Under the pieces are notes generated by a model. It was not told the origin of the DNA. It saw nothing but the letters and a program-made list of their open reading frames with translations, and searched no databases. Shown here piece by piece: positions 13,158 through 63,100 of a stretch of 64,000 nt of DNA. This DNA comes from an uncultured virus (IMG/VR IMGVR_UViG_3300006217_002156) (Duplodnaviria; Heunggongvirae; Uroviricota; Caudoviricetes). Each line of letters begins with the position of its first letter. The stretch's first letter is position 1. The DNA lies in the IMG/VR virus record IMGVR_UViG_3300006217_002156; one strand, 5' to 3'. The position numbers and the translations under genes were made by a program.

Positions 13158-14324
13158 ATGCCCATGAACCGCACCCCCGTTTTAAAGCGGGTCCCTAACA
13201 ACTGGGAAGAGCTGGAGAAGCTGCGGGAGATATTCCTGAAGGCGGAGAATGATCTGATTGCTGAGATTGCCCGCCAGCGTTCCCGTGGACTAGTGGACTA
13301 TCATACCGAGGCGGCCCTGTCCCGGGTGCAGGCCACCCTCCAGAAGCTGGTGGATGATGCTTGGAAGTACGTGCCTCGGATGATTGAGAAGCAGTTCTAT
13401 ACCCAGCACCCTGAAGTCCGAAGAATCCCGGAGACCGTGGAGAAGCACCAGGCGGGCTATGCCAACGCTTATGCCCTTACCCTGGAGCAGACCGCCATCG
13501 TGGAGCAGCTGACAATCAATCTCTTAGGTGAACTGATGGAGGCCTCTGCCACGGCCAAGCGCAATACAGAGGATGTGATCCTGGGCCGGTTGGAGAATGA
13601 CGTCTTCCGCCGGACTGGCCTGGCCCGTGTGGCAGCTATGGAGGCTGAGGGTGCCGGCGCCTACCCCTCCGCCCGGAAGATGATTCAGGACCTTCGAGCC
13701 CAAGGCGTCACCTGCTTTGTGGACAAGGCGGGGCGAAAATGGAGTTTATATTCCTACTGTAACATGGTGGCCAGGACCACCAGCAGACAGGCGGAGATAC
13801 TGGCTGTTCTTACCCAGGACCCGAAATGGGACCTGTATCAGGTTACCTCCCACACTGGGTCCTGTGGCCTATGCGCCCCCCTGGAGGGCCGCGTCTACTC
13901 CAAGAGCGGGACCGACCCGGATTTCCCGCCCCTGGCCTCCGCCTTTGGGAAAATCGACCCCGCGGGCCCCAACGACCTGAGCAACACTTATCTCAACATA
14001 CATCCTAATTGCCTCCATCAGCTCATAAGATGGACGCCCATAGGACACACGCCGGAAGAGCTGGAGAAAATCAAGCGTTTTTCCAGCTTCCGGACGAACC
14101 CGCCCAGCCGGGACCCCCGGTCCAGAAAGCAGATTGAAGCTTACCGCAGAAAGGAGGCCGGCCGCAGGCAGTTTTTGAAGGACCTTCGTCAATTCCAGGA
14201 TATGAAGCTGGTCCTGGGCCGCCGGATGACCGGGAACGCGGCGGAGTTTGTAAAGCACAAAATGGCCGGTGACGAAAAGTACCGCCGGTGGGTGGAGCTG
14301 TATCGAGAGGAGCTTGGGAAATGA
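13158..14324 (+). CDS. Phage minor capsid protein (Phage_min_cap2/MuF-like)
   Basis: FVDKAGRKWSL..Y..M..RT; CGLCAPLEGRVY; HPNCLH. Confidence 0.85.
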   Translation: MPMNRTPVLKRVPNNWEELEKLREIFLKAENDLIAEIARQRSRGLVDYHTEAALSRVQATLQKLVDDAWKYVPRMIEKQFYTQHPEVRRIPETVEKHQAGYANAYALTLEQTAIVEQLTINLLGELMEASATAKRNTEDVILGRLENDVFRRTGLARVAAMEAEGAGAYPSARKMIQDLRAQGVTCFVDKAGRKWSLYSYCNMVARTTSRQAEILAVLTQDPKWDLYQVTSHTGSCGLCAPLEGRVYSKSGTDPDFPPLASAFGKIDPAGPNDLSNTYLNIHPNCLHQLIRWTPIGHTPEELEKIKRFSSFRTNPPSRDPRSRKQIEAYRRKEAGRRQFLKDLRQFQDMKLVLGRRMTGNAAEFVKHKMAGDEKYRRWVELYREELGK

Positions 14325-14449
14325 GCGAGACAGTTATCAAAGCCATAGAGGCCATCCTGGCTCGCGGCGACCGGGTAGAACTGATCCCGACTAAAGACGG
14401 TGTACGCGTGATTGGAGTGAAACGCAGGGAGGTAAAGCTGAATGGCTAA
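14321..14449 (+). CDS. 42-aa protein (MSETVIKAIEAILARGDRVEL...), paralog of 23349-23474
   Basis: Manual translation; ATGA overlap with the upstream gene. Confidence 0.65.
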   Translation: MSETVIKAIEAILARGDRVELIPTKDGVRVIGVKRREVKLNG

Positions 14450-14488
14450 AAACCGTACCGGGTCTTTAAAATAAACTTAAAAAACCTC

Positions 14489-14535
14489 TTGACTTTTTAT
14501 CACACCTAAAGTAGAATAAAGGTGTGATTAAAAGT
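14489..14535 (+). promoter_or_regulatory. Sigma70 promoter with inverted-repeat operator
   Basis: TTGACT-17-TAGAAT flanked by atcacacct/aggtgtgat. Confidence 0.7.
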
Positions 14536-14543
14536 GAGGTGAT

Positions 14544-14720
14544 ATGGTGAGCCCACGCACAGGGCGGCCAAAAGTGGAAAATCCAATAAATAAGCGTTTT
14601 AGTGTATGTCTTGATGAAAAAACATTAAAACAGCTTGAAGTCTACTGCCAAACAAACGGAATTACAAAAGGTGAGGCAGTACGAAATGGAATCCATCTGC
14701 TTTTGGAGCAAGAAAAATAG
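14544..14720 (+). CDS. Ribbon-helix-helix (CopG-like) regulator
   Basis: SPRTGRPKVENP...LDE....LE.YC...ITKGEAVRNGI. Confidence 0.75.
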   Translation: MVSPRTGRPKVENPINKRFSVCLDEKTLKQLEVYCQTNGITKGEAVRNGIHLLLEQEK

Positions 14721-14832
14721 AGTGTTGGCGGCCTCACAAACCTCACCAACACCCTATGACACCACACCCGGAGGTCTGGTAAATCTGATTATGCCATACT
14801 TCCTGGTGAAAATCAACAGGAGGTTTTGAAAA

Positions 14833-15045
14833 ATGAATACCGATGCTAGAAAGAGAATTGAGCGGTACATTGCGCAGACACCAATCAGCGAACGTGACGA
14901 GATCAATTACTGTATCCGAGTCAGTGAAATCAGAGCTCTGTATGAGTTGATGGAGCAGGACTGGTATCACGCAATCTGCATGATTTTTTCCTATGGCCGG
15001 GCCAAAGGCTACCGGGCCGCAAAGGCGGAGGCGAAACGTGGGTAA
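14833..15045 (+). CDS. Hypothetical protein (YGRAKGYRAAKAE family)
   Basis: AGGAGG RBS. Confidence 0.65.
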   Translation: MNTDARKRIERYIAQTPISERDEINYCIRVSEIRALYELMEQDWYHAICMIFSYGRAKGYRAAKAEAKRG

Positions 15046-15742
15046 ATTTATTGATTTGACCGGGCAGAGGTTTGGGAGACTGACAGTAATACGGAGGACT
15101 AACGATTATGTAGCGCCTGGTGGTGCTACCGAGCCAATGTGGCTATGTATCTGTGACTGTGGGAATGAAACAACAGTTAAGAGAAGTGCGTTAAAAGGTG
15201 GGCATACTAAAAGTTGTGGGTGTTTTCATTCCGAAAGAATTTCTAAGCTAATGAAAAAGCAAAATCCATTTACGATTAACGGTGAAAAGGTCTATGTCTG
15301 TCTACTCAATTCTAAATCGGAAATGGTAGTTGATAAAGACACTTGGTTCAATACTACTCGCTATTTTTGCTGGTCGTTATCGTCAAATGGATACGCAAAG
15401 GCAAGAATCGGTAATAAAAGTGTTTACTATCATGTTTTTGCTTTTCCTAATTGCCCTGATGGTATGGAGAGAGATCATATAGACGGAAATCGACTTAATA
15501 ATTGTCGGACTAACATACGGTTTGTAACTCGATGCAACAACAATAAAAATAGAAAATTCAAAGAAAATCGAAAGAGCGGTAAAACTGGGGTAAATTGGTC
15601 AAAATCTTCCAATAAATGGAGAGCCATAATAAAAGCAGACGGAAAATACATAAGTCTTGGCTATTTTGTGGACCTCCAAGATGCTATTGATGCCCGTGAA
15701 GCCGCTGAAATCAAGTACTTTGGAGAGTACAGAAGAAAGTAA
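15038..15742 (+). CDS. HNH homing endonuclease with AP2 domain
   Basis: DLTGQRFGRL, C.CDCG, KSCGC, DHIDGNRLNN, W.A.I...LGYF. Confidence 0.9.
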   Translation: MGKFIDLTGQRFGRLTVIRRTNDYVAPGGATEPMWLCICDCGNETTVKRSALKGGHTKSCGCFHSERISKLMKKQNPFTINGEKVYVCLLNSKSEMVVDKDTWFNTTRYFCWSLSSNGYAKARIGNKSVYYHVFAFPNCPDGMERDHIDGNRLNNCRTNIRFVTRCNNNKNRKFKENRKSGKTGVNWSKSSNKWRAIIKADGKYISLGYFVDLQDAIDAREAAEIKYFGEYRRK

Positions 15743-15749
15743 ATATTGA

Positions 15750-15826
15750 GCCCTGCCCTAAACGTTGGACAGGAAGAACCGAGCGTGGTTGATGGCAAAA
15801 GCCATTGGCCGCGCTTTTATTTTTGG
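15750..15826 (+). promoter_or_regulatory. Structured leader/attenuator motif, copy 1
   Basis: P1 hairpin, gaaga linker, terminator hairpin plus U-tract; homologous to 23482-23557. Confidence 0.65.
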
Positions 15827-15837
15827 AGGTGAGCCCC

Positions 15838-18627: not shown

Positions 18628-18927
18628 ATGTCTGCTTTTGTTGTTTCTTACCGCAATGTTGTTATCCCCCACCCCGATGGCGGGCCCCCTTGCCACCTGA
18701 CCAGGGGGTATGCCGGTCCGGTGCCCGACTGGGTGCCTGGGATCGCCTACTTCAAGGCTCTTGAGGCGGACGGCAAGATTGTCCTGTCCACGTCCAGGAA
18801 GGACAAGGACCTGCGCAGAGCCAAGGCGGCGGCGGATAAAGCCCGCAAGACCGCCGAAAAGGCTGTCCAGGAATCGGCGGCGCCGGTCGGTGATTCTGTG
18901 GAGGAACCAGATGTATCCAGAGAGTAA
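18628..18927 (+). CDS. Small head-associated protein
   Basis: VPDWV....YFKAL..DGKI; follows capsid. Confidence 0.65.
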   Translation: MSAFVVSYRNVVIPHPDGGPPCHLTRGYAGPVPDWVPGIAYFKALEADGKIVLSTSRKDKDLRRAKAAADKARKTAEKAVQESAAPVGDSVEEPDVSRE

Positions 18928-19414
18928 GCCCCAGTTTCTGGGCGTAAAAGCTGCGGCGGCCAATATCGGTCGAGGGACGGGTGAATATACCACCGATATG
19001 TTTCAGGAGGATTTTCCCCAGTTCTTCACTAAGGGTACAGAGGAAGCGCCGCCGGCCTCCCTCCTGACCCAGACCATGCTGGAAGCGTTCATCAGACAGG
19101 CCAACGCGGCTATCCAGCCGGACAAGTGGCTGGATGTCTGGCGGTACGCCTGCGGGCTCTATGTGGCCCATAACGCCGCGCTATACCTGCGCACCTGGTC
19201 CGAGGGCAGTGACAGCCCCGCCCAGGCGGCGGCTTCGGGGGCACTGGTGGGAGTGGTCAGGTCGGCCCAACTGGGGGACAGCTCCGTCAGCTATGACACC
19301 AGCGCCCTTACCCGGGCCACCGAGGATTGGGGCGACCTGAACAGTACCCAGTATGGCCAGCTGCTGGCCTCCAGGGCCAGGCTGGTGGGTATGGGAGGAA
19401 CCTACAGTATATAG
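18911..19414 (+). CDS. DUF4054 head-tail connector
   Basis: F.EDFPQF, GLYVAH, GD.SVSYD, STQYGQ.L. Confidence 0.85.
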   Translation: MYPESKPQFLGVKAAAANIGRGTGEYTTDMFQEDFPQFFTKGTEEAPPASLLTQTMLEAFIRQANAAIQPDKWLDVWRYACGLYVAHNAALYLRTWSEGSDSPAQAAASGALVGVVRSAQLGDSSVSYDTSALTRATEDWGDLNSTQYGQLLASRARLVGMGGTYSI

Positions 19415-19555
19415 AGCTCTTATACATATATATGTAGGAGACTAACGCAGGAAATCTGCTGCTCCCTTCCCTTTTCATCGCACCCGCTTTGGCCTTAGCT
19501 AATCGCATTTATGTGGTGCTCCCAGGGCTTAACTTCCCCCGCTCTGTCGGGGTAG
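19406..19555 (-). ncRNA. TnpB omegaRNA scaffold A1 (cognate, downstream of tnpB)
   Basis: ctaccccgacagagcgggggaagttaagccctgggag...gatgaaaagggaa pattern right after the tnpB stop. Confidence 0.75.
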
Positions 19556-19564
19556 GCAGCTGAT

Positions 19565-20728
19565 TTAGGCCAACTGCAAACCATAGTTTCTGAGGTTAAT
19601 TGCTGCTGCCAAGTCTCGGTTATTGTGTGCTCCACACTGAGGACATGTCCACGACCGGACTGTCAAATCCTTTGTGGCAGGATTCTTTGTTCCACACTGG
19701 GGGCAGAGCTGAGAAGACGGGAAAAATCTGTCGGCCCTGATGAATCGGATATTGTACCAGTTGCTTTTATATTCCAGCTGGCGCAGGAACTCATAAAAGC
19801 CTTGATCTTGAATTGCCTTGGAAAGGTGCTTGTTCTTCATCATCCCGGAGACATTCAAATTCTCCACAGTGATGCTGCAAGGTATTTTCTTTATAATGGC
19901 AGCGCTAGACTGATGGCGATGATTTTGGCGGATGTTGGTCAGGCGGCGTTTGATCCGTAGCACCTGTTTCTCTAACTTTCGGATGTTAGCAGTCTTAATA
20001 AGCCTCTGACCAACTTTGTTCATCTCATACTTTCGTGAAAGCCGCCTCTGGAGCCGCCGCAGCTTCTTTTCCAGACGGCGGACCTCCTGTGTGTGGTTGA
20101 TGTTGCCGAAGGTGGTTCCGTCTGAACATACAGCAAGGTTTTTGATTCCTACATCTATGCCCAGCGGTTCTCCTGTGGGAACCTCCTGAGAATCAGGAAA
20201 CTCATAGACAGCACTGAGCCACCAGTTCAGACCATCATAAGTAACTCGAGCTGAGTAGGCAGGCCGGTCAAGGGGTAACTTGTTCTTTTCGGCTAATTTG
20301 ACCCAGTTGAAGGTGCGGCCCTTTTTCAAAAGAGGATGTAACTTTTGAATCTTGACGTACCAAGGACGAACTTTCACACTTCGTCCTTCCAGGTAGAACG
20401 AGGGCCGGGATTTTGTCCGAGACTTGAAACGAGGGTATTTGGCTTTTCCCTTAAAAAAGTTTTGATAGGCTGTAGTGGCGTCTTTGATAGCTGCAGTAGC
20501 TACTATGCGTGCAGTGTCATTGAGCCAGGAATATTCAGGTTTCCGTCTGAGGGAGGTGAGCTCCTTGCACAAATCGAAGGAGCTCAGAAACTTCTCGCCC
20601 TGTGCATAGTTCTCCTGCTCCCGGCTCAGTGCCCAGTTATAAGCCCACCGGGCCACGCCCGCACATTGGAACAAACGGGTTTGCTGCTTGTTGTTCGGGT
20701 GTAGCATGACCCGAATGGTCTTATACAT
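19565..20728 (-). CDS. tnpB: TnpB RNA-guided endonuclease, RuvC D-E-D intact
   Basis: HTH_OrfB N-terminus, GIDVG, VENLNV, CPQC/CPQC Zn finger, RDLAAAINL. Confidence 0.95.
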   Translation of the reverse strand: MYKTIRVMLHPNNKQQTRLFQCAGVARWAYNWALSREQENYAQGEKFLSSFDLCKELTSLRRKPEYSWLNDTARIVATAAIKDATTAYQNFFKGKAKYPRFKSRTKSRPSFYLEGRSVKVRPWYVKIQKLHPLLKKGRTFNWVKLAEKNKLPLDRPAYSARVTYDGLNWWLSAVYEFPDSQEVPTGEPLGIDVGIKNLAVCSDGTTFGNINHTQEVRRLEKKLRRLQRRLSRKYEMNKVGQRLIKTANIRKLEKQVLRIKRRLTNIRQNHRHQSSAAIIKKIPCSITVENLNVSGMMKNKHLSKAIQDQGFYEFLRQLEYKSNWYNIRFIRADRFFPSSQLCPQCGTKNPATKDLTVRSWTCPQCGAHNNRDLAAAINLRNYGLQLA

Positions 20729-20939
20729 TGTTTGGCCTCCCACATGTAATGCGCCGGTATATAGCAGCCAGTGTATCAGCAACACCCTGGAGCCATTTGT
20801 CGTGTTTGTCCCTGGGTGTAACCGCAGTAAACCGGTTCAAGGTAATCTCTTGAATGAGCCTGAAATCCCCTGTTTCCGTAAGGGCAAGCCTTACAGTGAA
20901 TCCGTAAAACTGGATTGTTCCCTCTTGGAGCAGTTGGAC

Positions 20940-21037
20940 GGCCTGTGGTATCGGCTTCTCAGCCGTTCGCGGTTCGCCGTGCCGCCCAGCGGCAGCACTC
21001 CCCGCGCGTTTAGGTTCGGACCTGCCCGGCCCTACCG
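20940..21037 (-). ncRNA. Orphan IS605-type omegaRNA-like scaffold B1
   Basis: ggtagggccgggcaggtccgaacctaaacgcgcggggag...gaaccgcgaacggctgagaagccg; homologous to 23227-23322. Confidence 0.6.
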
Positions 21038-21060
21038 CACCATTAGTTGTCGCATCAGGG

Positions 21061-21516
21061 TCACGCCGCATTCTGAGCGCCCCCTCTCTCCTGCACCTTG
21101 ACCCGGAGCTTGACCCCCAGGCTATATCCCTGCCCCATGCCTCCATAGATGGCGTACTGGACCACCTGGGTCTCCATACCGGCGTCCATGAGCGGGGCCA
21201 GCATGGCGGCCACCTCACGGGGCAGGTGCCCTACCTGGCCCACCCTGCGGCCCCACAGAAGACCGTACACAGCGATGGCGTTCTTGTCGTAGGGGTTGTC
21301 CGGTTCCCGCTCCAGCTGGTAGCTGGTGTCCTCCAGGACGTTCTGTTCCAGTCTGCGGAGCACCTGCTGACTGTTGCCGAAGGTAACGCCCACAGCCTTA
21401 GTGACGAGACTGCCCACCTTGATGAAGGCCCAGGCCCGCCGCATGGCCTCCCCCCGGTCCTTCAGGACGGGGGAGAGACGGTTGGCGATTGCCATAACTT
21501 GTTTTCTAGTGTTCAT
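21061..21516 (-). CDS. HIRAN-domain protein
   Basis: VGVTF, LEREPDNPYDKNAIAV, VGHLPREVAAMLAPLMDAG. Confidence 0.9.
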   Translation of the reverse strand: MNTRKQVMAIANRLSPVLKDRGEAMRRAWAFIKVGSLVTKAVGVTFGNSQQVLRRLEQNVLEDTSYQLEREPDNPYDKNAIAVYGLLWGRRVGQVGHLPREVAAMLAPLMDAGMETQVVQYAIYGGMGQGYSLGVKLRVKVQERGGAQNAA

Positions 21517-21523
21517 TTTGATA

Positions 21524-21647
21524 CCTCCTATAGAGCTTGAGACTGATTTTTTGCTCAATTCCCCATTCACAGCACCCGCTTTGGCCGAAGCTGCTTGCGT
21601 TTGTACGGCGCTCCAGAGGCTTGACTTCCCCCGCTCTGTCGGGGTAG
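21524..21647 (-). ncRNA. Second A-type omegaRNA scaffold A2 (orphan)
   Basis: 24-nt identity with A1 (21624-21647 = 19532-19555) and colinear similarity through agctctata. Confidence 0.7.
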
Positions 21648-21659
21648 TGTTTGCTGTAA

Positions 21660-21884
21660 TCATAACATTTTCAGGTCTTCCAGGTCGATGGCCCGGTCGG
21701 GCGCGATAGTGGAGACGGCGTGCTTGTAGATGAAATACTGTTCATTCCTGATTTCCACCGCCACAATGGTCTCATCGAAGCCAGTGATCCGCCCCTTCAT
21801 CTGGAAGCCGTTTGTGATGATGACAGTCACCACCTGACGCTCCTGTTGGAGTCTGGAAAGGATGCGGTCCTGTAAATTGTTCAT
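21660..21884 (-). CDS. hfq: Hfq/Sm-like RNA chaperone, phage copy 2
   Basis: NLQDRIL..L..ER.VVTV..TNGFQMKGRITGFD...IYKHAVSTIAP. Confidence 0.92.
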   Translation of the reverse strand: MNNLQDRILSRLQQERQVVTVIITNGFQMKGRITGFDETIVAVEIRNEQYFIYKHAVSTIAPDRAIDLEDLKML

Positions 21885-22075
21885 GCCACACCTCCGAAGT
21901 CCGCAGCCTGGGCACGGTTGTACCGTTTTAAAATCGAAAGCTGGCAGTCGGGGCACAGGACATGCCCGAATAGGTCCGGGTCGGCCTCCCGGCCCCACAG
22001 CTCCGCTTGGCAGCAGTCGCAGTAGGCGTCCGGGATGGTTTGCTGGGGGTCTGTAAGAATCGAAAATTTTAGCAT
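21881..22075 (-). CDS. Small Zn-finger protein
   Basis: CDCC...LCPDC; GAGGAGG RBS; overlaps the hfq start. Confidence 0.65.
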   Translation of the reverse strand: MLKFSILTDPQQTIPDAYCDCCQAELWGREADPDLFGHVLCPDCQLSILKRYNRAQAADFGGVA

Positions 22076-22169
22076 AAAAATGGGCCTCCTCATTTGATTT
22101 TTAGAAAAAACTATGGTAAGATAGACCCAGGAACCAGGGGCCGAAGCCCCTGGCCTGGGAGGGGCCTAG

Positions 22170-22256
22170 TTATCTAGGCCAGTTGGCTACCAAAGCGTCA
22201 TGCAGGCTGTCGTAGGCTTTGCCCTGGTAGTGCCACTTTCCCGAGTGGAACCGCAT
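22170..22256 (-). CDS. 28-aa peptide MRFHSGKWHYQGKAYDSLHDALVANWPR
   Basis: GGGAGGTG RBS; TGGACA-17-TACAAT promoter; homolog at 39151-39240. Confidence 0.7.
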   Translation of the reverse strand: MRFHSGKWHYQGKAYDSLHDALVANWPR

Positions 22257-22475
22257 GTTCTTCACCTCCCTTTTCAGTCTCCGCTGGCCGGGTGTCCTAC
22301 CACCCGGCCCGGCGGGATTGTCAGCGGGTTTCCCCGGCTGATGGTGTTATTGTATCACCTCGAATACATTTTGTCCATTGGCAGAATGTACTAACTTGAA
22401 TACATTTCTTTGTGCAGAATTGTACTTGAGTGAATACGCTCTCTGTGGTACAATTAGATGCGAAAGGAGGACCTA

Positions 22476-22751
22476 ATGCCGATTTCGATGGTAAAGGTGA
22501 AGGAAGTCATGAATCAGCGTGGGTTAAAAAAATTTGACCTAAGAAAGCAAGGATTTAGCCCAAATGTTATCGACAAGGTGCTGTCTGGCCCACTGGACAA
22601 AACCAAAAGGGTCGATACTGAAACCATTGACAGGCTGTGTGAGGTGCTCGAGTGCCAACCAGGCGATATAATGGAGTACGTTCCCGACCCCGACGGCGAA
22701 CAAAAAAGCCCGCCCCCCGGAGAGGGGAGCGGGAGCGGGCTTGACAACTAA
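22476..22751 (+). CDS. HTH_26 (YozG-like) regulator
   Basis: TIDRLCEVLECQPGDIMEYV. Confidence 0.85.
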   Translation: MPISMVKVKEVMNQRGLKKFDLRKQGFSPNVIDKVLSGPLDKTKRVDTETIDRLCEVLECQPGDIMEYVPDPDGEQKSPPPGEGSGSGLDN

Positions 22752-23091
22752 ACACCAAGCGGTTATAATAACGGCAAGAGGACGGTTCCCCTGTGTGCTA
22801 GACAGAGGAGCGGCCAACTAAGAGCAAAGTAATTGGAATTGCCGCTTCTTGCTAGGGACAGGGGGCGGCTATTTCTTTAGGTTATTGCCTAAAGCGATAG
22901 CGGTAAGTACGAGCATAAAGAGTGCTATAACTTCGCCAACGCTCATGGGCTTTCCTCCTTTCAGAGTTAGCCCCGCCCTCTTGCTGGACAATAATATACC
23001 ACAGATCTTGCAAAAGCACAACAAAAAACCCCGCCCCCCGGGGAGGGGAGCGGGAGCGGGCTTGACAACTAAACACCAAGCGGTTATACTA
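22699..23091 (+). repeat. ~72 bp direct repeat (22699-22770; 23020-23091) carrying an antitoxin-RNA promoter
   Basis: ...gggagcgggcTTGACAactaaacaccaagcggtTATAAT/TATACT twice. Confidence 0.85.
22869..22946 (-). CDS. Type I toxin-like hydrophobic peptide MSVGEVIALFMLVLTAIALGNNLKK
   Basis: AAGGAGG RBS; single TM plus lysine tail; convergent antisense promoter. Confidence 0.75.
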   Translation of the reverse strand: MSVGEVIALFMLVLTAIALGNNLKK

Positions 23092-23177
23092 AAGACAACG
23101 AGGGTGCGACCAACAGACGGTCAACCCCCGGGTTTAGTTACAAAGAAGTAACCGCTATGCTGGGGAGCAGAGGGCGG

Positions 23178-23225
23178 TTACTTCTTTTTACCCTGGATGA
23201 ACAGGCTGCAAATGCCAATGATAAC
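23178..23225 (-). pseudogene. 3' remnant of a holin-like type I toxin (VIIGICSLFIQGKKK*)
   Basis: 14/15 aa identical to the C-terminus of 42628-42708; 5' part replaced by scaffold B2. Confidence 0.75.
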
Positions 23226-23226
23226 A

Positions 23227-23322
23227 CGGTAGGGCGGGGTACGCCCGAACCTAACGCGCGGGGAGAGAAGGGCAATGGCCCGCTCGACGAACCGCGAACG
23301 GCTAAAAGCCGATGCCAATGCC
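23227..23322 (+). ncRNA. Orphan IS605-type omegaRNA-like scaffold B2
   Basis: cggtagggcggggtacgcccgaacctaacgcgcggggaga...ctcgacgaaccgcgaacggctaaaagccg. Confidence 0.6.
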
Positions 23323-23348
23323 AGAAAACAACCCTGAAAGGAGCCCAC

Positions 23349-23474
23349 ATGTCCCCCAAAACAATCGCCGCCATCATCGCGGCCCTTGACAAGGGCTTCC
23401 GGGTGGAACTGACAAAAGAAAAAGACGGTGGTATCGCCATACGCACCGTCACCCGGAAGGCCCTGAAAATTTAA
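23349..23474 (+). CDS. 41-aa protein (MSPKTIAAIIAALDKGFRVEL...), paralog of 14321-14449
   Basis: AAAGGAG RBS; aligns with 14321-14449. Confidence 0.7.
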   Translation: MSPKTIAAIIAALDKGFRVELTKEKDGGIAIRTVTRKALKI

Positions 23475-23481
23475 CATTGTA

Positions 23482-23557
23482 CCCACGCCCTAAGCGGTGG
23501 GCGGGAAGAGCTGAGTGGAGCTGACAGGAGAAATCCTGTTGGCTCTATTTTTATTTT
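23482..23557 (+). promoter_or_regulatory. Structured leader/attenuator motif, copy 2
   Basis: Same architecture as 15750-15826 with compensatory changes. Confidence 0.65.
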
Positions 23558-23570
23558 GGAAGGAGGTCAT

Positions 23571-23978
23571 ATGAACTACAATGACTGGTATACCGACTTG
23601 GTGGATGTCTACCGGGTCCAATCGGTTCAAGACGGGGCCCTGACTACGCAGGAGCGGGTCCTGGTGGAGGCGAATATCCCATGCCGGGTCTATCGGAACA
23701 GCGTCCACGGGCCCAGGATGCAGCCCACCGCCGCCAAGGTGGAGCAGGAGGATAAGCTGGCCTGCGCCAATGAGGCGGACATCCGGGGCGGCGATGAGCT
23801 GATAATCCGCCGGGGTGCCCGCCTGGATCAGGCCCGCCAGCGAGTCCGGGCCTTCGCCGGAGAGCCGGCCTATTTCTATGAACCCTTTGGAGCGGTCCTC
23901 CCCGGCCTGGCCCACCAGGAGTTGGCTCTGCTCCAGATGGAGTATCTGAAGGGAGAGGTGGACGATGGCAGCAGGTGA
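23571..23978 (+). CDS. Head-tail adaptor/closure protein
   Basis: Position; IPCRVY, DIR.GDEL.I, HQE. Confidence 0.75.
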   Translation: MNYNDWYTDLVDVYRVQSVQDGALTTQERVLVEANIPCRVYRNSVHGPRMQPTAAKVEQEDKLACANEADIRGGDELIIRRGARLDQARQRVRAFAGEPAYFYEPFGAVLPGLAHQELALLQMEYLKGEVDDGSR

Positions 23979-24474: not shown

Positions 24475-24923
24475 CCTTCACCATACAGACCCTCGCCAGC
24501 TCCCTGGCCGACTACCTGCGTCCGGAGCTTCCCGGCGCGACCTTCTACAGCAGCCCCAACCAGCAGGGTACCCGCCTTCCGGCTCTGTTCCTACGGCGCA
24601 CCAACGCTCGGATTGCAAGGAAGACGGGAGACCGTTTCCTGCGCACACTGGGGCTGGACCTGGTATATATAGAGGAGTTTAACCAGTTGGGCATGGACGA
24701 CCGCTACACCGCCGCCGCTGACATCCTGGACCAGGTGATGGAGACCTTTCCTTACTACAGCGGCGAGGGTAAACGGACTGCCCTCCTGCGGACCTATGAG
24801 CGCAAGTGGGACATCGTCGACGATGTCCTCCACTATAAATTCGACCTCAAAATCTGGGTGGGCAAGGCAGAGGATACGGTCCTGATGCAATCCATCCAGT
24901 CCTATCATGAGGAGGTATCTTAA
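24471..24923 (+). CDS. Tail terminator-like protein
   Basis: QQG...PA.F, DDVLHYKF. Confidence 0.7.
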   Translation: MTFTIQTLASSLADYLRPELPGATFYSSPNQQGTRLPALFLRRTNARIARKTGDRFLRTLGLDLVYIEEFNQLGMDDRYTAAADILDQVMETFPYYSGEGKRTALLRTYERKWDIVDDVLHYKFDLKIWVGKAEDTVLMQSIQSYHEEVS

Positions 24924-25105
24924 TGGACAAGAAACCTACCACTAAGGCGGAGGGCCCCCGGTATTCTACCGCTGATCTGCTGAACAGCAAGGCGCTGTCC
25001 GGCTACCAGCGGGACTTTGCCAGGGTCCTGCTGACCAAGCCGGACTATACCCTCCAGGAGGCCAAGGCTATCCTGGGCAACTTCTTTAAGGGAGGTGACG
25101 CCTGA
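24923..25105 (+). CDS. Small tail-region protein
   Basis: Precedes sheath; homolog of 61057-61242. Confidence 0.7.
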   Translation: MDKKPTTKAEGPRYSTADLLNSKALSGYQRDFARVLLTKPDYTLQEAKAILGNFFKGGDA

Positions 25106-41273: not shown

Positions 41274-42413
41274 CTAAAGCATAAATGCCTTTTCCACGTG
41301 GTCGATCAATTGCTCAGGTTTGTTATCGACCACGTGGCTATATACATTTAACGTCATCTTTATGTCTGAATGACCTGCCAAATATTGGATTTTTTTGATG
41401 TCGCATCCCGAAGCACATAAACGGCTTATATAACTATGGCGTAGCAGATGGGGTGTGACCTTAAAATCCAGCGTCCGCTCAATCTTGGGGCCACGGGGCT
41501 GCCTCTGGACCTCCTGATCCAGAGCGACCACATTGGAAGCCCGTCGCCGCTCCACGATCTTCATTAGGTTTTTTACGGTTTGCGGCGTAGCGTTTCCGCC
41601 ATTAGCGGAAGGAACCACAAAGACGCTCTTGGTCTGCTTCTTCTCCTCAGCCAGGGCTGCAGCCAAAACAGCCGGCAACGGGATAGTCCGGTGGGCGGCC
41701 TTTGTCTTAAGCGGGGAAGGAAATACACCTTTGGTTCCCTCGAAGCGGACGGCATTGTTTACCGTCAGGTGGGGAGGAGTGGCCGTGAGGTCCACGTCCA
41801 CCCAGCGCAAGCCGCAGATTTCCTCCCGGCGCAGACCGGTGTACAGGCCCAGCATGATAAACAGGTAGGCCCTAGTGCCCTTGGTAGCCTCCAGGAGGGC
41901 TTTGCATTGCTCTGGTGTGAGGGGCGTTTTTTCCTTGCTCCTCTCCCCAGCTGCTTTCAGCTTGCCACAGGGAGACCGGAAAATCAATCCATTCTCAACT
42001 GCACAATCAAAAATAGATTTCAGGGTGATTACCGTTTTGGACTGCATGGAGTTGGACAGGTGAGCCATCTTGGAGAGCACCATCTGGCAGTGCTCCGGCT
42101 TGACCTCCTTCACCAGCATCCCGCCAATATAGGGGCAGATGTGGACGTTGATTGCGTTGACGTAGTCCGATCTCCGGGAGTAGGACCACTTGTCCTTGCG
42201 GTTGTTGTACCACTGGGTGGCCAGCTCAGCTACGGTGGTCTTGTCGTCCAGGACAATACCCATCCGCTGGGCGGTCTCCAGGTCGTACAGTTTCTTCCGC
42301 AACTCCTCCTTGCTCCTGGCACGGACATCCTTCCAGGTTCCGTCCCGGAGCTTGAGACGCTTACGGTAGTAACCCGTCTTGGGGTCGAAGTAAAATTCCG
42401 GCCGCTTTGCCAT
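41274..42413 (-). CDS. int: Tyrosine integrase
   Basis: TGLRREE, HLLRH, LAGHSDI.MTL.VY. Confidence 0.95.
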   Translation of the reverse strand: MAKRPEFYFDPKTGYYRKRLKLRDGTWKDVRARSKEELRKKLYDLETAQRMGIVLDDKTTVAELATQWYNNRKDKWSYSRRSDYVNAINVHICPYIGGMLVKEVKPEHCQMVLSKMAHLSNSMQSKTVITLKSIFDCAVENGLIFRSPCGKLKAAGERSKEKTPLTPEQCKALLEATKGTRAYLFIMLGLYTGLRREEICGLRWVDVDLTATPPHLTVNNAVRFEGTKGVFPSPLKTKAAHRTIPLPAVLAAALAEEKKQTKSVFVVPSANGGNATPQTVKNLMKIVERRRASNVVALDQEVQRQPRGPKIERTLDFKVTPHLLRHSYISRLCASGCDIKKIQYLAGHSDIKMTLNVYSHVVDNKPEQLIDHVEKAFML

Positions 42414-44612: not shown

Positions 44613-44978
44613 TTATTCTTCATCAGGCAGGCCAAAAGCCTTTTTATAACCATCCAGAGAATCAATAAATACTTTGATAGCATCAAGTTCAGGTTCAGAC
44701 ATTTTCTCAATCTCAGCAATCAGTCGCTTTTTGGTGGGAGACAGGTCAGGAGCATCGGCCCTTGAAACATAGCAATCTCCCTCCCCAGTCAGCACCCATT
44801 GGGCAGAGTATCCATATGCTTGTTCAATCAGTAAGGCGAGCGCTTCAGAAATGTTACAGCGCTTGCCTTTTAGCATATTTGATACATAGCTTTCAGTGAC
44901 CTTGATTGCACTGGCTAAATCTTTCTGCTTGATATGCTGCTCATCAAGAATAAGACGAATCCTATCTTTTAGTTCCAT
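44613..44978 (-). CDS. XRE HTH repressor, copy A
   Basis: Near-identical to 46944-47315. Confidence 0.85.
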   Translation of the reverse strand: MELKDRIRLILDEQHIKQKDLASAIKVTESYVSNMLKGKRCNISEALALLIEQAYGYSAQWVLTGEGDCYVSRADAPDLSPTKKRLIAEIEKMSEPELDAIKVFIDSLDGYKKAFGLPDEE

Positions 44979-45092
44979 ATTATCACCTCGCGGACAGCAT
45001 AACACAAAAACTTTTCCAAGTCAAGAAAAAAGGTATTGACAGCTTATCTAAGAAATGCTATGCTTATCCCAGAAAAGAAAGGAGGGCTAAAA

Positions 45093-46943: not shown

Positions 46944-47315
46944 TCACTCCCCCGGTTTATTGTCAGCAGAGAATGCCTTTTTGTAACCGTCCAGGGAATC
47001 AATAAATACTTTGATGGCATCAAGTTCAGGTTCAGACATTTTCTCAATCTCAGCAATCAAGCGCTTTTTGGTAGGAGACAGATCAGGAGCATTAAACTTT
47101 GAGACGTAGCGCTCTCCTTCACCAGTCAACACCCATTGGGCAGAATATCCGAATGCTTGTTCAATCAATAGGGCAAGAGCCTCCGAAATGTTACAGCGCT
47201 TGCCTTTTAGCATATTTGAAACATAGCTTTCAGTCACCTTGATTGCACTGGCTAACTCCTTCTGTTTGATATGTTGCTCATCAAGAATAAGTCGAATTCT
47301 ATCTTTTAGCTCCAT
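46944..47315 (-). CDS. XRE HTH repressor, copy B
   Basis: Near-identical to 44613-44978. Confidence 0.85.
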   Translation of the reverse strand: MELKDRIRLILDEQHIKQKELASAIKVTESYVSNMLKGKRCNISEALALLIEQAFGYSAQWVLTGEGERYVSKFNAPDLSPTKKRLIAEIEKMSEPELDAIKVFIDSLDGYKKAFSADNKPGE

Positions 47316-47429
47316 ATTATCACCTCGTGTATACGATAACACAAAAACTTTTCCAAGGCAAGAAAAATGGTATTGACAACTTATCTAAGAAATGATATGC
47401 TTATCCCAGAAAAGAAAGGAGGGGTGAAC

Positions 47430-48693: not shown

Positions 48694-49326
48694 ATGGGGA
48701 TTCCTGTTTTGATCCTTGGTGACTCCGGCGCTGGGAAATCTGCTTCCATGCGGAATTTTAACAGCCAGGATGTGCGTGTGTTCAACGTGGCAAGCAAGCC
48801 GCTGCCCTTCCGGGGGAAGCTCCCGGTGCTGAACGCAGCCACCTACAGCTCCATCATTCAGACCCTTTCCAAGCCTGACCGAAAGATTTACGTCATTGAC
48901 GACAGCCAGTATCTCATGGCCTTTGAGTTCTTTGACCGGGCCAAAGAGACCGGGTATAATAAATTTACGGACATCGGGCTTCACTTTCGTGATTTAATCC
49001 AGTTCATCGTCTCTCAGACCCCGCCGGATGTTATTGTATACCTACTGCACCACACGGAGAGCAGCGAAACCGGCACCCTGAAGGCAAAGACCATTGGCCG
49101 GATGCTGGATGAGAAGCTGACCGTGGAGGGGCTTTTCTCCATCGTCCTGCTGTGCAAGGGGGAGAAGGACCGGCACTACTTTGAGACCCAATCCAATGGA
49201 CTCAGCACAGCCAAAAGCCCCATGAAAATGTTCCCGCCAGAGATCGACAACGATCTGAAGCTGGTGGACGACACCATCCGCGAATACTACGGCATGGACA
49301 AACAAGAAAGGGAGGAAACGGTATGA
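48694..49326 (+). CDS. AAA_24/Sak4-like ATPase (recombination)
   Basis: LILGDSGAGKS, VIDD.QY, AKSP. Confidence 0.85.
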   Translation: MGIPVLILGDSGAGKSASMRNFNSQDVRVFNVASKPLPFRGKLPVLNAATYSSIIQTLSKPDRKIYVIDDSQYLMAFEFFDRAKETGYNKFTDIGLHFRDLIQFIVSQTPPDVIVYLLHHTESSETGTLKAKTIGRMLDEKLTVEGLFSIVLLCKGEKDRHYFETQSNGLSTAKSPMKMFPPEIDNDLKLVDDTIREYYGMDKQEREETV

Positions 49327-49853
49327 GACACACGGATTGGAGAGCCGTTGCGGCAAGAGATGACTTCGACAATCCCATCCCTGGCGCTTACATCGCAAGG
49401 ATCATCACTGTGACCGACGTGGAGGAGAAGGAATACCTTAGGATCGAGTGGGACTTTGCAGAGGGCAGCTACAAGGGCTATAACGGGGAGACCTTTTCCC
49501 GGGCCGGGTTCTGGCCCACCGCCATGTTCTGCTCTTACAAAGAGACAGCAAAAGGCTTTTTCAAGTCTTTTCTGAACGCTGTGGAGGCCTCCAACCCTGG
49601 TTATATCTTCGATGATTACCACCCGGAGCTCCTGGTAGGGAAGCTGATCGGCGTGGTCCTGGGGGAGGAGGACTATACCAGATCCAACGGCGATTCCGGC
49701 AAGCGCCTGTATGTGGCGCAGAAGAAGTCCATCCAGCAGATCCAGGCCGGGGACTTCAAGCTCCCTCAGCCGAAAAAGAAGGCGTCTGCGCCGGCGCCCC
49801 AGTACCCGGCTGCCGATATGGACGATGATGGCCCCCTCCCCTGGGACGAATAA
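49323..49853 (+). CDS. DUF669-like single-stranded DNA-binding protein
   Basis: PG.Y..RI, L.GK..G.V...E.Y, acidic DDDGPLPW tail. Confidence 0.7.
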   Translation: MRHTDWRAVAARDDFDNPIPGAYIARIITVTDVEEKEYLRIEWDFAEGSYKGYNGETFSRAGFWPTAMFCSYKETAKGFFKSFLNAVEASNPGYIFDDYHPELLVGKLIGVVLGEEDYTRSNGDSGKRLYVAQKKSIQQIQAGDFKLPQPKKKASAPAPQYPAADMDDDGPLPWDE

Positions 49854-49864
49854 GGGGGGAGCCC

Positions 49865-50701
49865 ATGAAAAGCGGGATCGACTATTTCCCGCTTGATGTC
49901 ACACTGGATGCGAAAATGGAACTGATAGAAGCAGAGTTTGGCCTGACAGGATTTGGTGTAGTCGTTCACTTGCTGCAGGAGATCTACGGCAAGGCAGGTT
50001 ACTACATTGAATGGACAAATGAGGTTGCGCTTTTGTTCGCCCGCAAGGTCGGGTTGGGTGGGGGCGCCGTTTCTGAAATAGTGGAGGCTTCTATCAGACG
50101 GGGTATGTTCGACAAAGAGATCTTCAATAAGTACCGAGTCCTCACATCAAAGGGCATACAAAAGAGGTATTTTGAGGCCGTCAGCCGCCGGAAGTCTCTG
50201 GAAGTCGATTTTAACATACTCCTGGTTGACCTTACCATTTTTTCTGAAAATGTTACCATTAAGCGGGTAAATGTAAACATTCTTTCCCAAAATGCCGACA
50301 GTTCCAAACAGAGGAAAGAAGAGAAGAGTAAAGTAGAGAAGAGTAAAGTAGAGCATAGGAAAGGAAAGAAAGGGGCGGACAAGCCGCCCGCTTCCTCTCA
50401 TTTCGTGCCGCCCACTCTGGAGGAGGTCACGGCATATATCAAAGAGAAGGGTTATCAGGCTGCCGATCCCAGGGCCTTTTTGGATTTCTATACCTCAAAA
50501 GGCTGGATGGTAGGGAAAAACAAGATGACGAACTGGAGAGCTGCCGTATCGGGATGGGACAGAAGGCAGCGGCAATTTTCCGGAACCGCTGCCGGTTATG
50601 GAGGGACAAGGCCGCAGCCGGGTACACCGGGGGAGGCGGATCAGCGCTCCAGGGAGGACATGGAACGCTTGCGAAAGTTCATGGAGGGGGCGAAGGGATG
50701 A
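49865..50701 (+). CDS. DUF4373 replication initiator
   Basis: GIDYFPLD, GYY, LTS.GIQKRY, PPTLEEV..Y, F.DFY...GW. Confidence 0.85.
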   Translation: MKSGIDYFPLDVTLDAKMELIEAEFGLTGFGVVVHLLQEIYGKAGYYIEWTNEVALLFARKVGLGGGAVSEIVEASIRRGMFDKEIFNKYRVLTSKGIQKRYFEAVSRRKSLEVDFNILLVDLTIFSENVTIKRVNVNILSQNADSSKQRKEEKSKVEKSKVEHRKGKKGADKPPASSHFVPPTLEEVTAYIKEKGYQAADPRAFLDFYTSKGWMVGKNKMTNWRAAVSGWDRRQRQFSGTAAGYGGTRPQPGTPGEADQRSREDMERLRKFMEGAKG

Positions 50702-50937
50702 GAGGCTGTCAACTGACAAATTGGTACACCGTCTACAAAGCGGAGCGGGACCAGCTGGTCACCATTGGGTTTGCCAAAGAGTGCGCAGCCTACCTGGGCT
50801 GGGCGGTAGATTCCTTTCGGTCCATGGTGTCCAAGGTCAAGAGCGGGAAAAACAAGTCCTACTGCGTGGTGGTGGAGGACTTGCTGTCTGGGTCCTATGC
50901 GGTCTACGGGGCGGACAACACCGGGGAGCTGAGATGA
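50698..50937 (+). CDS. Hypothetical DNA-binding protein
   Basis: Y.VY...D.LV..G.A.ECA..LG....SF. Confidence 0.6.
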   Translation: MRGCQLTNWYTVYKAERDQLVTIGFAKECAAYLGWAVDSFRSMVSKVKSGKNKSYCVVVEDLLSGSYAVYGADNTGELR

Positions 50938-51344
50938 GAGAGCATAGAGTCGTGAAGCTGGTGATCCCGGGGGTGCTGCCCAATCTCAACGACTACATAG
51001 CGGCGGAGCGCCGGCACCGGCAGAAGGCGGCCGCCATGAAGCGCCGGACTGAGCAGGTCATCGCCCTGGCGGCCAGAAAACAGCTCCGGGGAGTGCGCTT
51101 TACCGGGCCGGTGGTCATGGGGTATTGCTGGTATGAGCCCAACCGGAGAAGGGACAAGGACAACGTGTCCAGCTTTGGCCGAAAGTGCATCCAGGACGCC
51201 CTGGTGCGGGCGGGGGTGCTGAAAAACGACGGCTGGGGGGAGATCGACTCCTTCTCCGACAGGTTCTTTGTGGACAAGGACAATCCCAGGGTGGAGGTAA
51301 CCATCGAAGAGCGGAAAAGCGGGCAAGGAGCGACGGTGGACTGA
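50934..51344 (+). CDS. rusA: RusA-like Holliday junction resolvase
   Basis: RRDKDN...K.IQDALV.AG.L.ND, PRVEV.I. Confidence 0.85.
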   Translation: MREHRVVKLVIPGVLPNLNDYIAAERRHRQKAAAMKRRTEQVIALAARKQLRGVRFTGPVVMGYCWYEPNRRRDKDNVSSFGRKCIQDALVRAGVLKNDGWGEIDSFSDRFFVDKDNPRVEVTIEERKSGQGATVD

Positions 51345-51436
51345 AGTGAGGGCGAGCGGAAGGCCGCTTTGCGGCCTGAAGACCAGCCCGAATCAGAGGG
51401 AAGCGGAGCGACGGGGTGTGAGGGAGGAGGCAAAAA

Positions 51437-51874
51437 ATGAACTGGAAGATAGAAGCGATCAACAAGCTAAAGGGCTATGAAGCCCATCGGGTGGCCTTGG
51501 CTGCCATCCCGGCGGAGATCAAGCGGCTGGAGGAGGATGCGACCGTGCTCAAAACGGCCAGCACGGATCGGGAACCGGTTCATCAGGGGGAGAGCAACAG
51601 AGAGGACCAGCTGCTGTCCAACATCGTCCACCGGGGGGAGCTGGAGCGGGCGCTGAAGCAGGCCCGGGCCTGGGTGAACATTGTGGAACAGGGACTTGGA
51701 GTGCTGGATGCAGAGGAGCGCCAGGTGCTGGACAGATTCTATATCCACCGGGCTATGGGGAATATTGACCTTCTATGTGAGGAACTCCACCTGGAGAAAA
51801 GCCGGGTCTATGAACTCAAGGACAAGGCTTTGCGTCATTTTACCCTGGCGCTCTATGGCGTGGTGGAGACCTAA
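51437..51874 (+). CDS. ArpU/RinA-like late transcriptional regulator
   Basis: Before terS; L..EER.VL.RFY...L..EL.......Y..K..AL. Confidence 0.75.
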   Translation: MNWKIEAINKLKGYEAHRVALAAIPAEIKRLEEDATVLKTASTDREPVHQGESNREDQLLSNIVHRGELERALKQARAWVNIVEQGLGVLDAEERQVLDRFYIHRAMGNIDLLCEELHLEKSRVYELKDKALRHFTLALYGVVET

Positions 51875-52063
51875 AAGACCGGAAAAAAACCGGAAGATTT
51901 TCTGGATTGACAGTGATAGAATGATAAAAACGAACATGGGATAGAAGCCCCGCCGGGCCAAAGATCCGGCGGGGTTTTGTGCTGGGAAGGGCAACCGAAA
52001 GGAGTGGTGAGAAGGATCTCGGACCTTTGCTGCTGCCCTTTATTTTGACTTGGGGTGGTGAGA

Positions 52064-52627
52064 ATGGCCAAGCTGACGCCAAAGCAGGAGCGGTTTGTGA
52101 ATGAATACCTGGTGGATCTCAATGCCACCGCCGCTGCTAAGCGGGCTGGATATAGCGAAAAGACAGCCAAAAGTCAAGGGCAAAGGCTGTTGACCAATGT
52201 TGACATCCAGGCTGCCATCCAAAAGCGCCGTGCAAAGCTCCAAGGTAAACTGGAAATCACCCAAGAGCAGGTGCTTGAGGAGCTGGCCGCTATCGCTTTT
52301 GCCAACGGTGCTGACTTCGCCACCGTCAGTCAAAATGGCATTGTCCGCATTACTCCCACCTCTGAGTTGTCGGAGGGAAAACGCAAAGCCATTGCCTCCA
52401 TCAAGGAGGGCCAATATGGCACGGAGGTCAAGACCTATGACAAGGTCAAGGCCCTTGAGCTGCTGGCCAAGTACTTGGGCCTGTTCGACAGCAAGAGCGG
52501 TGGCACAGAGCCGGAAGAAAACAATATCTTTGAGGTCATCGGCCAGAGCACCAGAGAGGAGTTAGACACAAGTGAGATACCAGAAATTGAGCCCCCGTCA
52601 AAACCTGGCCATGACATGGTGGAATAG
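52064..52627 (+). CDS. Terminase small subunit
   Basis: LTPKQ.RFV.EYL.DLNAT.AA.RAGYS. Confidence 0.92.
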   Translation: MAKLTPKQERFVNEYLVDLNATAAAKRAGYSEKTAKSQGQRLLTNVDIQAAIQKRRAKLQGKLEITQEQVLEELAAIAFANGADFATVSQNGIVRITPTSELSEGKRKAIASIKEGQYGTEVKTYDKVKALELLAKYLGLFDSKSGGTEPEENNIFEVIGQSTREELDTSEIPEIEPPSKPGHDMVE

Positions 52628-53798: not shown

Positions 53799-53809
53799 GG
53801 TGAAAAATA

Positions 53810-57080: not shown

Positions 57081-57406
57081 CCTATCATTTCACTTACAAA
57101 GAAGAAACGGAAATTTTCCTCGGCCGGATGAACAGAGACAAGCCCAAAACTGGGGCACTTGCGGCATCCGAGTGGCTCCCGGAGTTTAATGAGAAACAAC
57201 TCAAAGAAGCAGAAAGGCTTGATGTCATCTTACCTCTCATCAAGTGGTGCGTTGAGCATGATCTGCTGACAGAGGAGCTTGAGGATGAACTTTATCTCTA
57301 CTATGAGGACTACACCAACGGAGTTCTTGAGCCTATTCTGGCAGAGTATGAGGCCGATGAGGTCATTCGAGATCTCACTGCGTGCTACAAAAAGGTTTTC
57401 ATGTAG
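57077..57406 (+). CDS. Candidate immunity protein for the MuF deaminase
   Basis: Acidic; ATGA-coupled to the toxin stop; followed by a terminator. Confidence 0.65.
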   Translation: MTYHFTYKEETEIFLGRMNRDKPKTGALAASEWLPEFNEKQLKEAERLDVILPLIKWCVEHDLLTEELEDELYLYYEDYTNGVLEPILAEYEADEVIRDLTACYKKVFM

Positions 57407-57423
57407 CATGATCCTTTGTTGTT

Positions 57424-57458
57424 AAAAGCATCGTGATGAACAATCACGATGCTTTTTT
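57424..57458. terminator. Intrinsic terminator
   Basis: aaaagcatcgtgat-gaaca-atcacgatgcttttt. Confidence 0.8.
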
Positions 57459-57556
57459 CATACCCAAATTACCGCCTCGGGCGGCGGACAACAAATAAGC
57501 CCGCGGCAATACCGGGACTGGCCGGATAAAAAGGATAGCCGAGCAGGAGGTACACA

Positions 57557-58156: not shown

Positions 58157-58168
58157 GGAGGCCGCACG

Positions 58169-58312
58169 ATGAAACTGATTGGCAGCAAAGAAAAGAGCTA
58201 CCAGCTGGTGAGCTCTTACGAAGAAGAGAAGCCCCAAAAGCCGGAGAAACCCGGAAACAAGCCGCCTAAGGGCGGCACCACTGGCCCTGACCAGGGCAGA
58301 AAGGAAGAGTAA
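58169..58312 (+). CDS. 47-aa hypothetical protein between scaffold and capsid
   Basis: AAGGAGG RBS; manual translation. Confidence 0.5.
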   Translation: MKLIGSKEKSYQLVSSYEEEKPQKPEKPGNKPPKGGTTGPDQGRKEE

Positions 58313-58315
58313 ATT

Positions 58316-59407: not shown

Positions 59408-59418
59408 GGAGGCAAGGT

Positions 59419-61055: not shown

Positions 61056-61056
61056 A

Positions 61057-61242: not shown

Positions 61243-61243
61243 T

Positions 61244-62584: not shown

Positions 62585-62597
62585 GGGAGGGAGATCA

Positions 62598-63074: not shown

Positions 63075-63100
63075 GCCGAAATAAAAGAGGAGGAAAACTC

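Follow-up and report, generated by a model that had tools for sequence, protein, structure and literature searches.

A candidate transposase-less TnpB/RAGATH-18 homing cassette at a stop/start overlap in a phage head-tail gene cluster

The DNA of an uncultured virus recorded as IMGVR_UViG_3300006217_002156 (Caudoviricetes), analysed here over a stretch of 64,000 nt (the window), contains an island of 4.16 kb among the head-tail genes of a prophage-like stretch, between the gene for a DUF4054 virion structural protein and that for a head-tail adaptor. The island is an insertion into a gene junction that is found empty in relatives, and it carries a TnpB nuclease gene together with RNA elements of the RAGATH-18 type. 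Taken as a whole, its best explanation, to which we give about an even chance, is a composite cargo block whose left end would be a transposase-less, IS607-derived TnpB/RAGATH-18 homing cassette and which would have entered at the AT where stop and start of the two genes overlap.

According to this model the RNA scaffold would extend to 19411 and be followed by a guide at 19410-19391, and the matching target-adjacent motif (TAM), TTCAT, would lie at the far junction of the island. Where the island is absent, the TAM would directly adjoin the guide target; TnpB would make its cut within the last part of the DUF4054 gene, and the island would be copied in by repair from a filled phage (homing). 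Such an insertion would be nearly harmless, because the antisense of the scaffold gives the DUF4054 stop at its normal codon and the far end provides the next gene with a ribosome-binding site.

The empty site and the nuclease

The empty site was examined in the best 80 of 131 DUF4054 relatives in viral contigs, one of which was cut off, leaving 79 scorable. All 79 lack the island, with no insert and no tnpB hit at the DUF4054 junction, and the two genes are joined by a 4-nt stop/start overlap in 59 and separated by a gap of 9-13 nt in 20. An earlier note on this DNA, made from the letters of the window alone, had let the left flank end at 19405 and the right flank start at 23566, and had predicted that their joint restores a DUF4054 gene ending in GGTYVI with a 4-nt overlap into the next gene. 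Both positions are as claimed and the joint agrees with that of the island-free relatives, GGTYVI being the commonest ending of DUF4054 (40 of 120 proteins among the matches listed). Because the relatives join both genes without an insert and the join reproduces their ending, the 4-kb island is an insertion at the DUF4054/head-tail adaptor junction and the empty site is real. The G+C content of the island is 53%, compared with 61% and 60% in the flanks.

In the filled allele the DUF4054 gene is unbroken and reaches its stop at the codon used by the relatives. The tetranucleotide ATAT is common to both junctions in register (19409-19412 and 23569-23572), so that a second in-frame join is possible, which would give an allele of normal length with Ser instead of Val. 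The relatives with empty alleles are distant (protein identity 58-77%, at most 83%) and the phage's own empty allele is therefore unsampled. A query with the next gene led to six loci, all on contigs already included in the analysis. A search of sequencing runs gave one run with 7% of the words and, among the matches listed, no holder of the RNA; at 80% likeness the same run gave relatives only, with no joint across the island among those listed, and one contig piece from it ended at 19405. Those DUF4054 homologues that bear names belong to Oscillospiraceae, which suggests this group as host; DUF4054 was found in none of 401 genomes of one family, which may not be that of the host.

The TnpB matches NF040570 with 307 bits (cut-off 100) and NF038280 (IS607_TnpB) with 156 bits, below the cut-off of 350, and a RAGATH-18 RNA (scaffold A1) is located directly downstream of its gene. 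Within 15 aligned sequences D192 and D372 are invariant, and E289 is missing only in one with a deletion. Judged by its sequence, the protein is a TnpB of the IS607/RAGATH-18 type with intact catalytic residues; a TldR, the nuclease-dead TnpB repressor, was ruled out by the intact RuvC triad. With 50 tnpA proteins from relatives as queries no match was found in the island, the best one elsewhere in the window having an E-value of 0.005 over 42 aa. In terms of the serine recombinase tnpA the island is not a complete IS607 element, in agreement with the earlier view that it would move without a transposase. The motif of an IS607 left end, in which TnpA-binding repeats follow a GG/AG core, is absent from the window as well; the same motif recovered only 34 of 137 positive-control loci.

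Besides one fragment, 13 full-length homologues of this TnpB were found at 66-83% identity. In a quick tree, of which only clade support and placement were used and whose AG/GG row labels are rough and in part wrong, the protein and its 13 full-length homologues form a clade of 14 with support 100 on a long stem, nested among ordinary IS607 TnpBs; the ordinary IS607 relatives (L081-L325) mostly have a GAGG ribosome-binding site on one side and a start codon on the other. The clade is distinguished in the TAM-reading helix by Arg74 and by Ile or Ala at 75, and at position 78 all 14 members carry a residue that is small or aliphatic; in 97 of 105 generic homologues these three sites are Asn, Asn and Lys. 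The alignment places K80 and K83 of ISFba1 at I75 and T78, and K76, F77 and Q80 of ISDra2 at R74, I75 and T78. Hence the Lys that reads G at position -1 in ISFba1 (K83) is replaced by T78. With these residues altered, the TAM of the clade is probably not the G-rich one of the family and is unreadable from the characterised relatives. DNA of close-clade TnpBs was searched for in viral contigs, species genomes, metagenome contigs and phage and plasmid records, with best matches of at most 57%; in genomes, one of 54 gave a hit at E<=1e-90, the seed genome itself, and none of 401 did by DNA. Scans of viral contigs with scaffold patterns gave no match in one case and four unrelated ones in another. 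An AlphaFold model was too poor for use (predicted local distance difference test score 57, predicted template-modelling score 0.28).

Scaffold end, guide and rival explanations

The structure of ISFba1 contains a pseudoknot between the 5' hairpin loop and the terminal bases of the scaffold (Ren et al. 2024, PMC11061315; PDB 8IAZ). The register of this pseudoknot was determined among 245 TnpB loci. After removal of duplicates and of loci without the whole C-terminus, 300 nt of downstream sequence or both anchors, 124 distinct ones were left, and in 123 of them the end could be called. In 103 of these 123 the scaffold end pairs with the loop 4-mer at an offset of 8 nt ahead of the anchor; an offset of 9 is seen in nine and an offset of 10 in none; the remaining 11 fit no offset from 7 to 9, some of them through miscalls of the end pattern. 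The types of pair covary (GTTA:TAAC, GTTG:CAAC, GCTA:TAGC, GCCA:TGGC), and the scaffold of the family ends 2 nt after the pseudoknot partner. As this end had been set by a consensus pattern, it was checked by comparing 442 pairs that agree in their end but not in their flanks: the first base after partner+2 differs in 292 and the second in 104.

Both scaffolds of the island, A1 and A2, contain a predicted offset-8 pair AGAG:CTCT followed by AT. In A1 the loop AGAG is at 19545-19542, the partner CTCT at 19416-19413 and the terminal AT at 19412-19411, beyond the end of the Rfam RAGATH-18 match at 19467. The duplex amounts to -7.6 kcal/mol, versus -4.0 kcal/mol for an alternative pair, CTCT adjoins the last hairpin directly or after one base in both copies, and the clade nests among relatives with offset-8 ends. 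Since the same pair and AT occur in A1 and in A2, A1 quite probably ends at 19411, and the guide would then start at 19410. The antisense of A1 supplies the TAG stop of DUF4054. A2 is positioned between hfq and the HIRAN gene, and its changes relative to A1 preserve the structure.

The predicted scaffold end is situated inside the shared ATAT and yields an empty allele as long as those of the relatives. The predicted TAM has the same last two bases as the scaffold end and differs from it at -3 and -4; self and non-self are distinguished in the same way in IS607 elements, whose TAM and scaffold end agree in the last two bases but not at -3 (10.1101/2023.11.20.567912; 10.1101/2023.08.09.552727). 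Island-free alleles with this TAM beside the position of the guide target are present among the relatives, TTCAT being found there in 54 of the 79, compared with eight for ATGAC. None of the G-rich motifs AGGAG, GAGGG, TGGG and GGG is found at the empty-site position in the likeliest register.

Several observations weigh against homing as outlined above, foremost the mismatch of the seed with natural empty alleles. Against the 79 empty relatives the likeliest guide has at least three mismatches in its first 10 positions and at least four in 20, because the filled allele has a Ser codon, which corresponds to guide positions 3-5. Ser was found at this codon in none of the 79 loci, in none of 119 proteins and in no hit of a pattern scan of the viral collection, and all 119 homologues have Val, Ala or Ile there. 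Two other possible registers, discussed below, still leave at least two mismatches in 20 against every relative, and no target with three or fewer mismatches for either of the two likeliest guides was found in 352 loci (3.3 Mb). Single mismatches at guide positions 1-13 are reported to impair ISFba1 (PMC11061315) and double mismatches at positions 1-12 to abolish cutting by ISDra2 (PMC10097598). Furthermore, Arg74 would suit a G at TAM position -3, the base read by K76 in ISDra2 (PMC10097598), and TTCAT has C there. An AT core is unseen among the scaffold ends of the relatives, for which the end pattern allowed G/A endings only, and the register is based on relatives at 30-57% protein identity and on the two copies within the window. 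Finally, the far end of the island is a phage module which has no recognisable IS607 left end.

The absence of the Ser codon from every sampled empty allele implies that the guide targets a close relative outside the sample or that its aim was lost since insertion, loss being at least as likely. There are three ways to account for the codon: a Ser already present in the original empty allele, a change of the seed after the insertion, or the entry of five foreign bases along with the cassette. That TnpB cuts some natural empty allele today is accordingly given somewhat less than an even chance. The reading of the island as working like an IS607 TnpB homing cassette is partly supported from its sequence features and fails on the seed match with the available relatives. 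Much the same holds for the earlier note, whose observation was partly confirmed and whose interpretation was partly supported: cleavage of element-free alleles by TnpB, on which it relied, is published, and a guide does point outward from the island into the last DUF4054 codons, but the seed in the likelier register mismatches all sampled empty alleles.

The Ser codon would be accounted for differently if the island were a mere passenger, joined to DUF4054 after the Tyr codon by illegitimate recombination, with five stale flank bases and a scaffold end at 19411. The guide seed would then be foreign, no cutting would occur at this site and the island would spread like any moron. This we consider unlikely, if the least so of the alternatives. 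It would agree with a Ser codon confined to the filled allele and a Val codon present at the far junction, with an island composed of assorted modules that also occur elsewhere in these phages, and with a second scaffold that carries an unrelated guide. On the other hand, the foreign DNA would have to supply by chance Ile and a stop at the natural codons as well as ATAT in register, and the GT on the far side is explicable by the conserved GAGGT ribosome-binding site of the terminal phage module, which can account for two of the three bases of the Val codon at that junction.

The remaining alternatives retain homing and shift the register. A1, though not A2, also contains a perfect 4-bp pair ACAG:CTGT (19407-19404) followed by AG, which would end the scaffold at 19402, start the guide at 19401 and make the TAM approximately CGTAG. 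The guide would in this case be wholly natural DUF4054 sequence, homing against Val alleles would be possible, CGTAG is found in 14 of the 79 relatives and the best guide match has two mismatches in 20. However, offset 10 occurs in none of the 123 relatives, A2 has no CTGT partner, the duplex is the weaker one, the Lys that reads G(-1) is lost, the AG core is absent from the far junction, and the TAM would differ from self only at -5. It is regarded as improbable. Marginally more improbable still is the register of the earlier note, in which 19405 lies directly 3' of A1, so that the scaffold would end at 19406, the guide would start at 19405 and match the Val empty allele perfectly, and the TAM would be (A)TGAC. 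It rebuilds the commonest natural ending mentioned above, and its best relatives have two mismatches in 20. In addition, Arg74/Ile75 align with Lys76/Phe77 of ISDra2, described as the readers of G(-3)/T(-4) in TTGAT, with which ATGAC shares TGA. However, the family rule gives an end at 19411, five bases earlier, and 19406 has no in-register pseudoknot. No loop 4-mer pairs with 19411-19408, and the distance from the partner would have to be 7 nt, compared with 2 in the family. The sequences of A1 and A2 part immediately behind CTCTATA, TAM and scaffold end would have no common core dinucleotide, unlike IS607, and ATGAC is rare at the junction of the relatives, as stated above.

If the homing model with its end at 19411 is correct, a whole cargo island rather than just a small insertion sequence would travel between phages by RNA-guided homing. 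The nuclease is compact and its TAM likely ends in AT, in a family for which the TAMs measured are all G-rich as far as the cited texts report them. Should the seed be truly mismatched, the island would exemplify a homing system with its aim lost and its nuclease intact. The fullest form of the proposal is considered unlikely: a clade of RAGATH-18 TnpBs would have swapped the G-rich TAM located at ribosome-binding sites for TTCAT, the reverse complement of start codons where stop and start overlap, and the 4-kb island, its scaffold end serving as stop codon of the upstream gene and its far end providing the ribosome-binding site of the downstream one, would home between phages inside an essential operon without a transposase.

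Cargo and surroundings

Table 1. Features of the island and its flanking genes (positions in the window)
Feature	Position	Strand	Basis
Gene of the DUF4054 virion structural protein; complete in the filled allele, with the ending GGTYSI-stop	18911-19414	+	Pfam PF13262, phrog_302, translation
Most likely guide of A1, antisense to the last 7 DUF4054 codons	19391-19410	-	predicted from pseudoknot register
Right-end RNA (reRNA)/omega-RNA scaffold A1: 5' hairpin, RAGATH-18 core 19467-19527, two 3' hairpins	19411-19556	-	Rfam RF03064, 53.7 bits (gathering 44.9); fold
TnpB, 387 aa; intact RuvC residues (D192, E289, D372) and all four zinc cysteines; TAM-reading helix altered (R74, I75, T78)	19565-20728	-	translation, family matches, alignment, tree
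Structured repeat B1, inverted copy of B2	20930-21037	-	inverted repeats I1, I2; alignment 75%; no Rfam match
HIRAN-domain protein, cargo	21061-21516	-	Pfam PF08797
Guide position of A2, equal to ribosome-binding site and start of HIRAN gene	21510-21529	-	register, fold
Second scaffold A2, with no tnpB of its own; 5' hairpin and CTCT+AT end as in A1	21530-21647	-	Rfam RF03064, 47.9 bits; repeat D1, 79% over 96 nt
Hfq-family protein, cargo	21660-21884	-	PF17209; TIGR02383 above cut-off
64-aa open reading frame (ORF), no family	21881-22075	-	family searches, translation
Divergent promoter-like sites with 21-nt direct repeat (D9)	22349-22454		consensus scan
Cro/C1-type helix-turn-helix (HTH) regulator	22476-22751	+	PF13443
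Two type I toxin-antitoxin-like modules	22699-23225		repeat D2, promoters, translations
Structured repeat B2, abuts truncated small ORF	23227-23330	+	repeat, alignment, consensus fold
Small ORF (phrog_29211), gut-2-like RNA 23481-23528 and ribosome-binding site	23349-23565	+	phrog match, Rfam
Predicted TAM TTCAT, reverse complement of the start of the next gene; ends in the same two bases as the scaffold	23571-23575	-	predicted
Head-tail adaptor gene, direct successor of DUF4054 in relatives	23571-23978	+	phrog_615, gene order of relatives

The phage-borne hfq shares a putative transcript with both guide RNAs, as the leftward one of the promoter-like sites could drive hfq-A2-HIRAN-tnpB-A1. A query with the HIRAN protein gave distant loci only. 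The guide of A2 matches 24910-24929 (+) at 17 of 20 bases, the first 10 perfectly, with the flank TCATG; as a target this match was judged likely to be a chance similarity between ribosome-binding sites. A 113-aa ORF at 21062-20724 was set aside as a gene, having no family or Atlas match.

The structured repeats B1 and B2 (about 100 nt) have a consensus fold in which 3 of 25 pairs are changed on both sides, and no match in Rfam or useful match in phage records was obtained for them. B2 is positioned against the truncated small ORF as if it had been inserted. The 5' hairpin of both repeats may resemble the starts of TnpB omega-RNAs. The two toxin-antitoxin-like modules comprise strong promoters on the + strand at 22741 and 23062, scoring 12/12 and 11/12, and a 25-aa hydrophobic ORF (22946-22869, -) as well as a truncated one (23225-23178, -); family searches gave no match, and the type I label is suggested by their layout.

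The module at the far end, whose gut-2-like RNA match of 37.4 bits is below the gathering threshold of 39.8, is located upstream of head genes in relatives and here gives the ribosome-binding site of the next gene. In the region 14321-15830 a second copy of the phrog_29211 small ORF precedes another insert, with a small regulator-like ORF and an HNH endonuclease (14993-15742), and a hairpin of gut-2-like look is found before the head gene; the module brackets inserts twice in the operon. Further downstream an integrase (41274-42413) is followed by genes for replication, terminase, portal, capsid and tail-sheath-like proteins, which occur here for a second time (48694-64000) and, the integrase excepted, were labelled by inspection; parts of two prophages therefore seem to be present in the window. 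Another ORF, which we take to be HicB-like from its appearance, is enclosed by two HTH regulator ORFs that are almost identical (44613-45005 and 46944-47342, -).

Comparison with known systems

The closest characterised counterparts are the elements of the ISFba1 type. They share with the island the order of tnpB, 5' hairpin, RAGATH-18 core and 3' hairpins, the pseudoknot between loop and scaffold end, the RuvC triad and the protein length of 387 aa. Unlike them, the island has no tnpA or clear left end, its pseudoknot is AGAG:CTCT rather than of the GYYR type, the predicted scaffold end is AT and not GG or AG, and upstream lie a further scaffold and some 2.8 kb of cargo. The measured TAMs of RAGATH-18 TnpBs are given as AGGAG for 18 of 22 strains and GAGGG for 4 of 22 (PMC11061315); as K80 and K83 are not kept here, both are unlikely for the present nuclease. 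CboIStron (Zedaveinyte et al., 10.1101/2023.11.20.567912) and ISXfa1 (Yoon et al., 10.1101/2023.08.09.552727) resemble the proposed arrangement in that TAM and scaffold end share the last two bases, self differs at -3 and, according to the cited portions of those studies, their TnpB cuts the element-free joint. They have, in contrast, a serine recombinase, a GG core and a measured G-rich TAM, whereas the island has no transposase and no intron and its TAM is a predicted one.

Cutting of the empty allele by TnpB with copying of the element by recombination has been described for IS605 (Meers et al., 10.1101/2023.03.14.532601) and also for IS607, a TnpB gene drive in plasmids spreads without TnpA activity (Mears et al., 10.1101/2025.02.20.638934; PMC13565253), and homing by TnpB during phage co-infection is called theoretically possible in a review (PMC13565253). 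The mechanism proposed here is the same and, given this published cutting and copying, its homing logic is not new; in the cited texts it is demonstrated for IS605 on chromosomes and plasmids with a perfect guide, whereas here a multi-gene phage island would be moved. A similar outcome is known from the intronless homing of SegF and SegB, where a nuclease gene between conserved phage genes carries neighbouring DNA into co-infecting relatives (PMC13565253); their targets are specified by protein, while the target here would be specified by RNA. The literature found holds no report of a RAGATH-18 TnpB with a TTCAT TAM or of a TnpB-homed cargo island in a phage, and TTCAT appears in it only as the TAM of an IscB, in the cited part of 10.1101/2023.03.14.532601. 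What is new in the present island compared with all of these systems is a 14-member clade with a changed pseudoknot and TAM helix, a likely AT core at a stop/start overlap, a second scaffold and the cargo.

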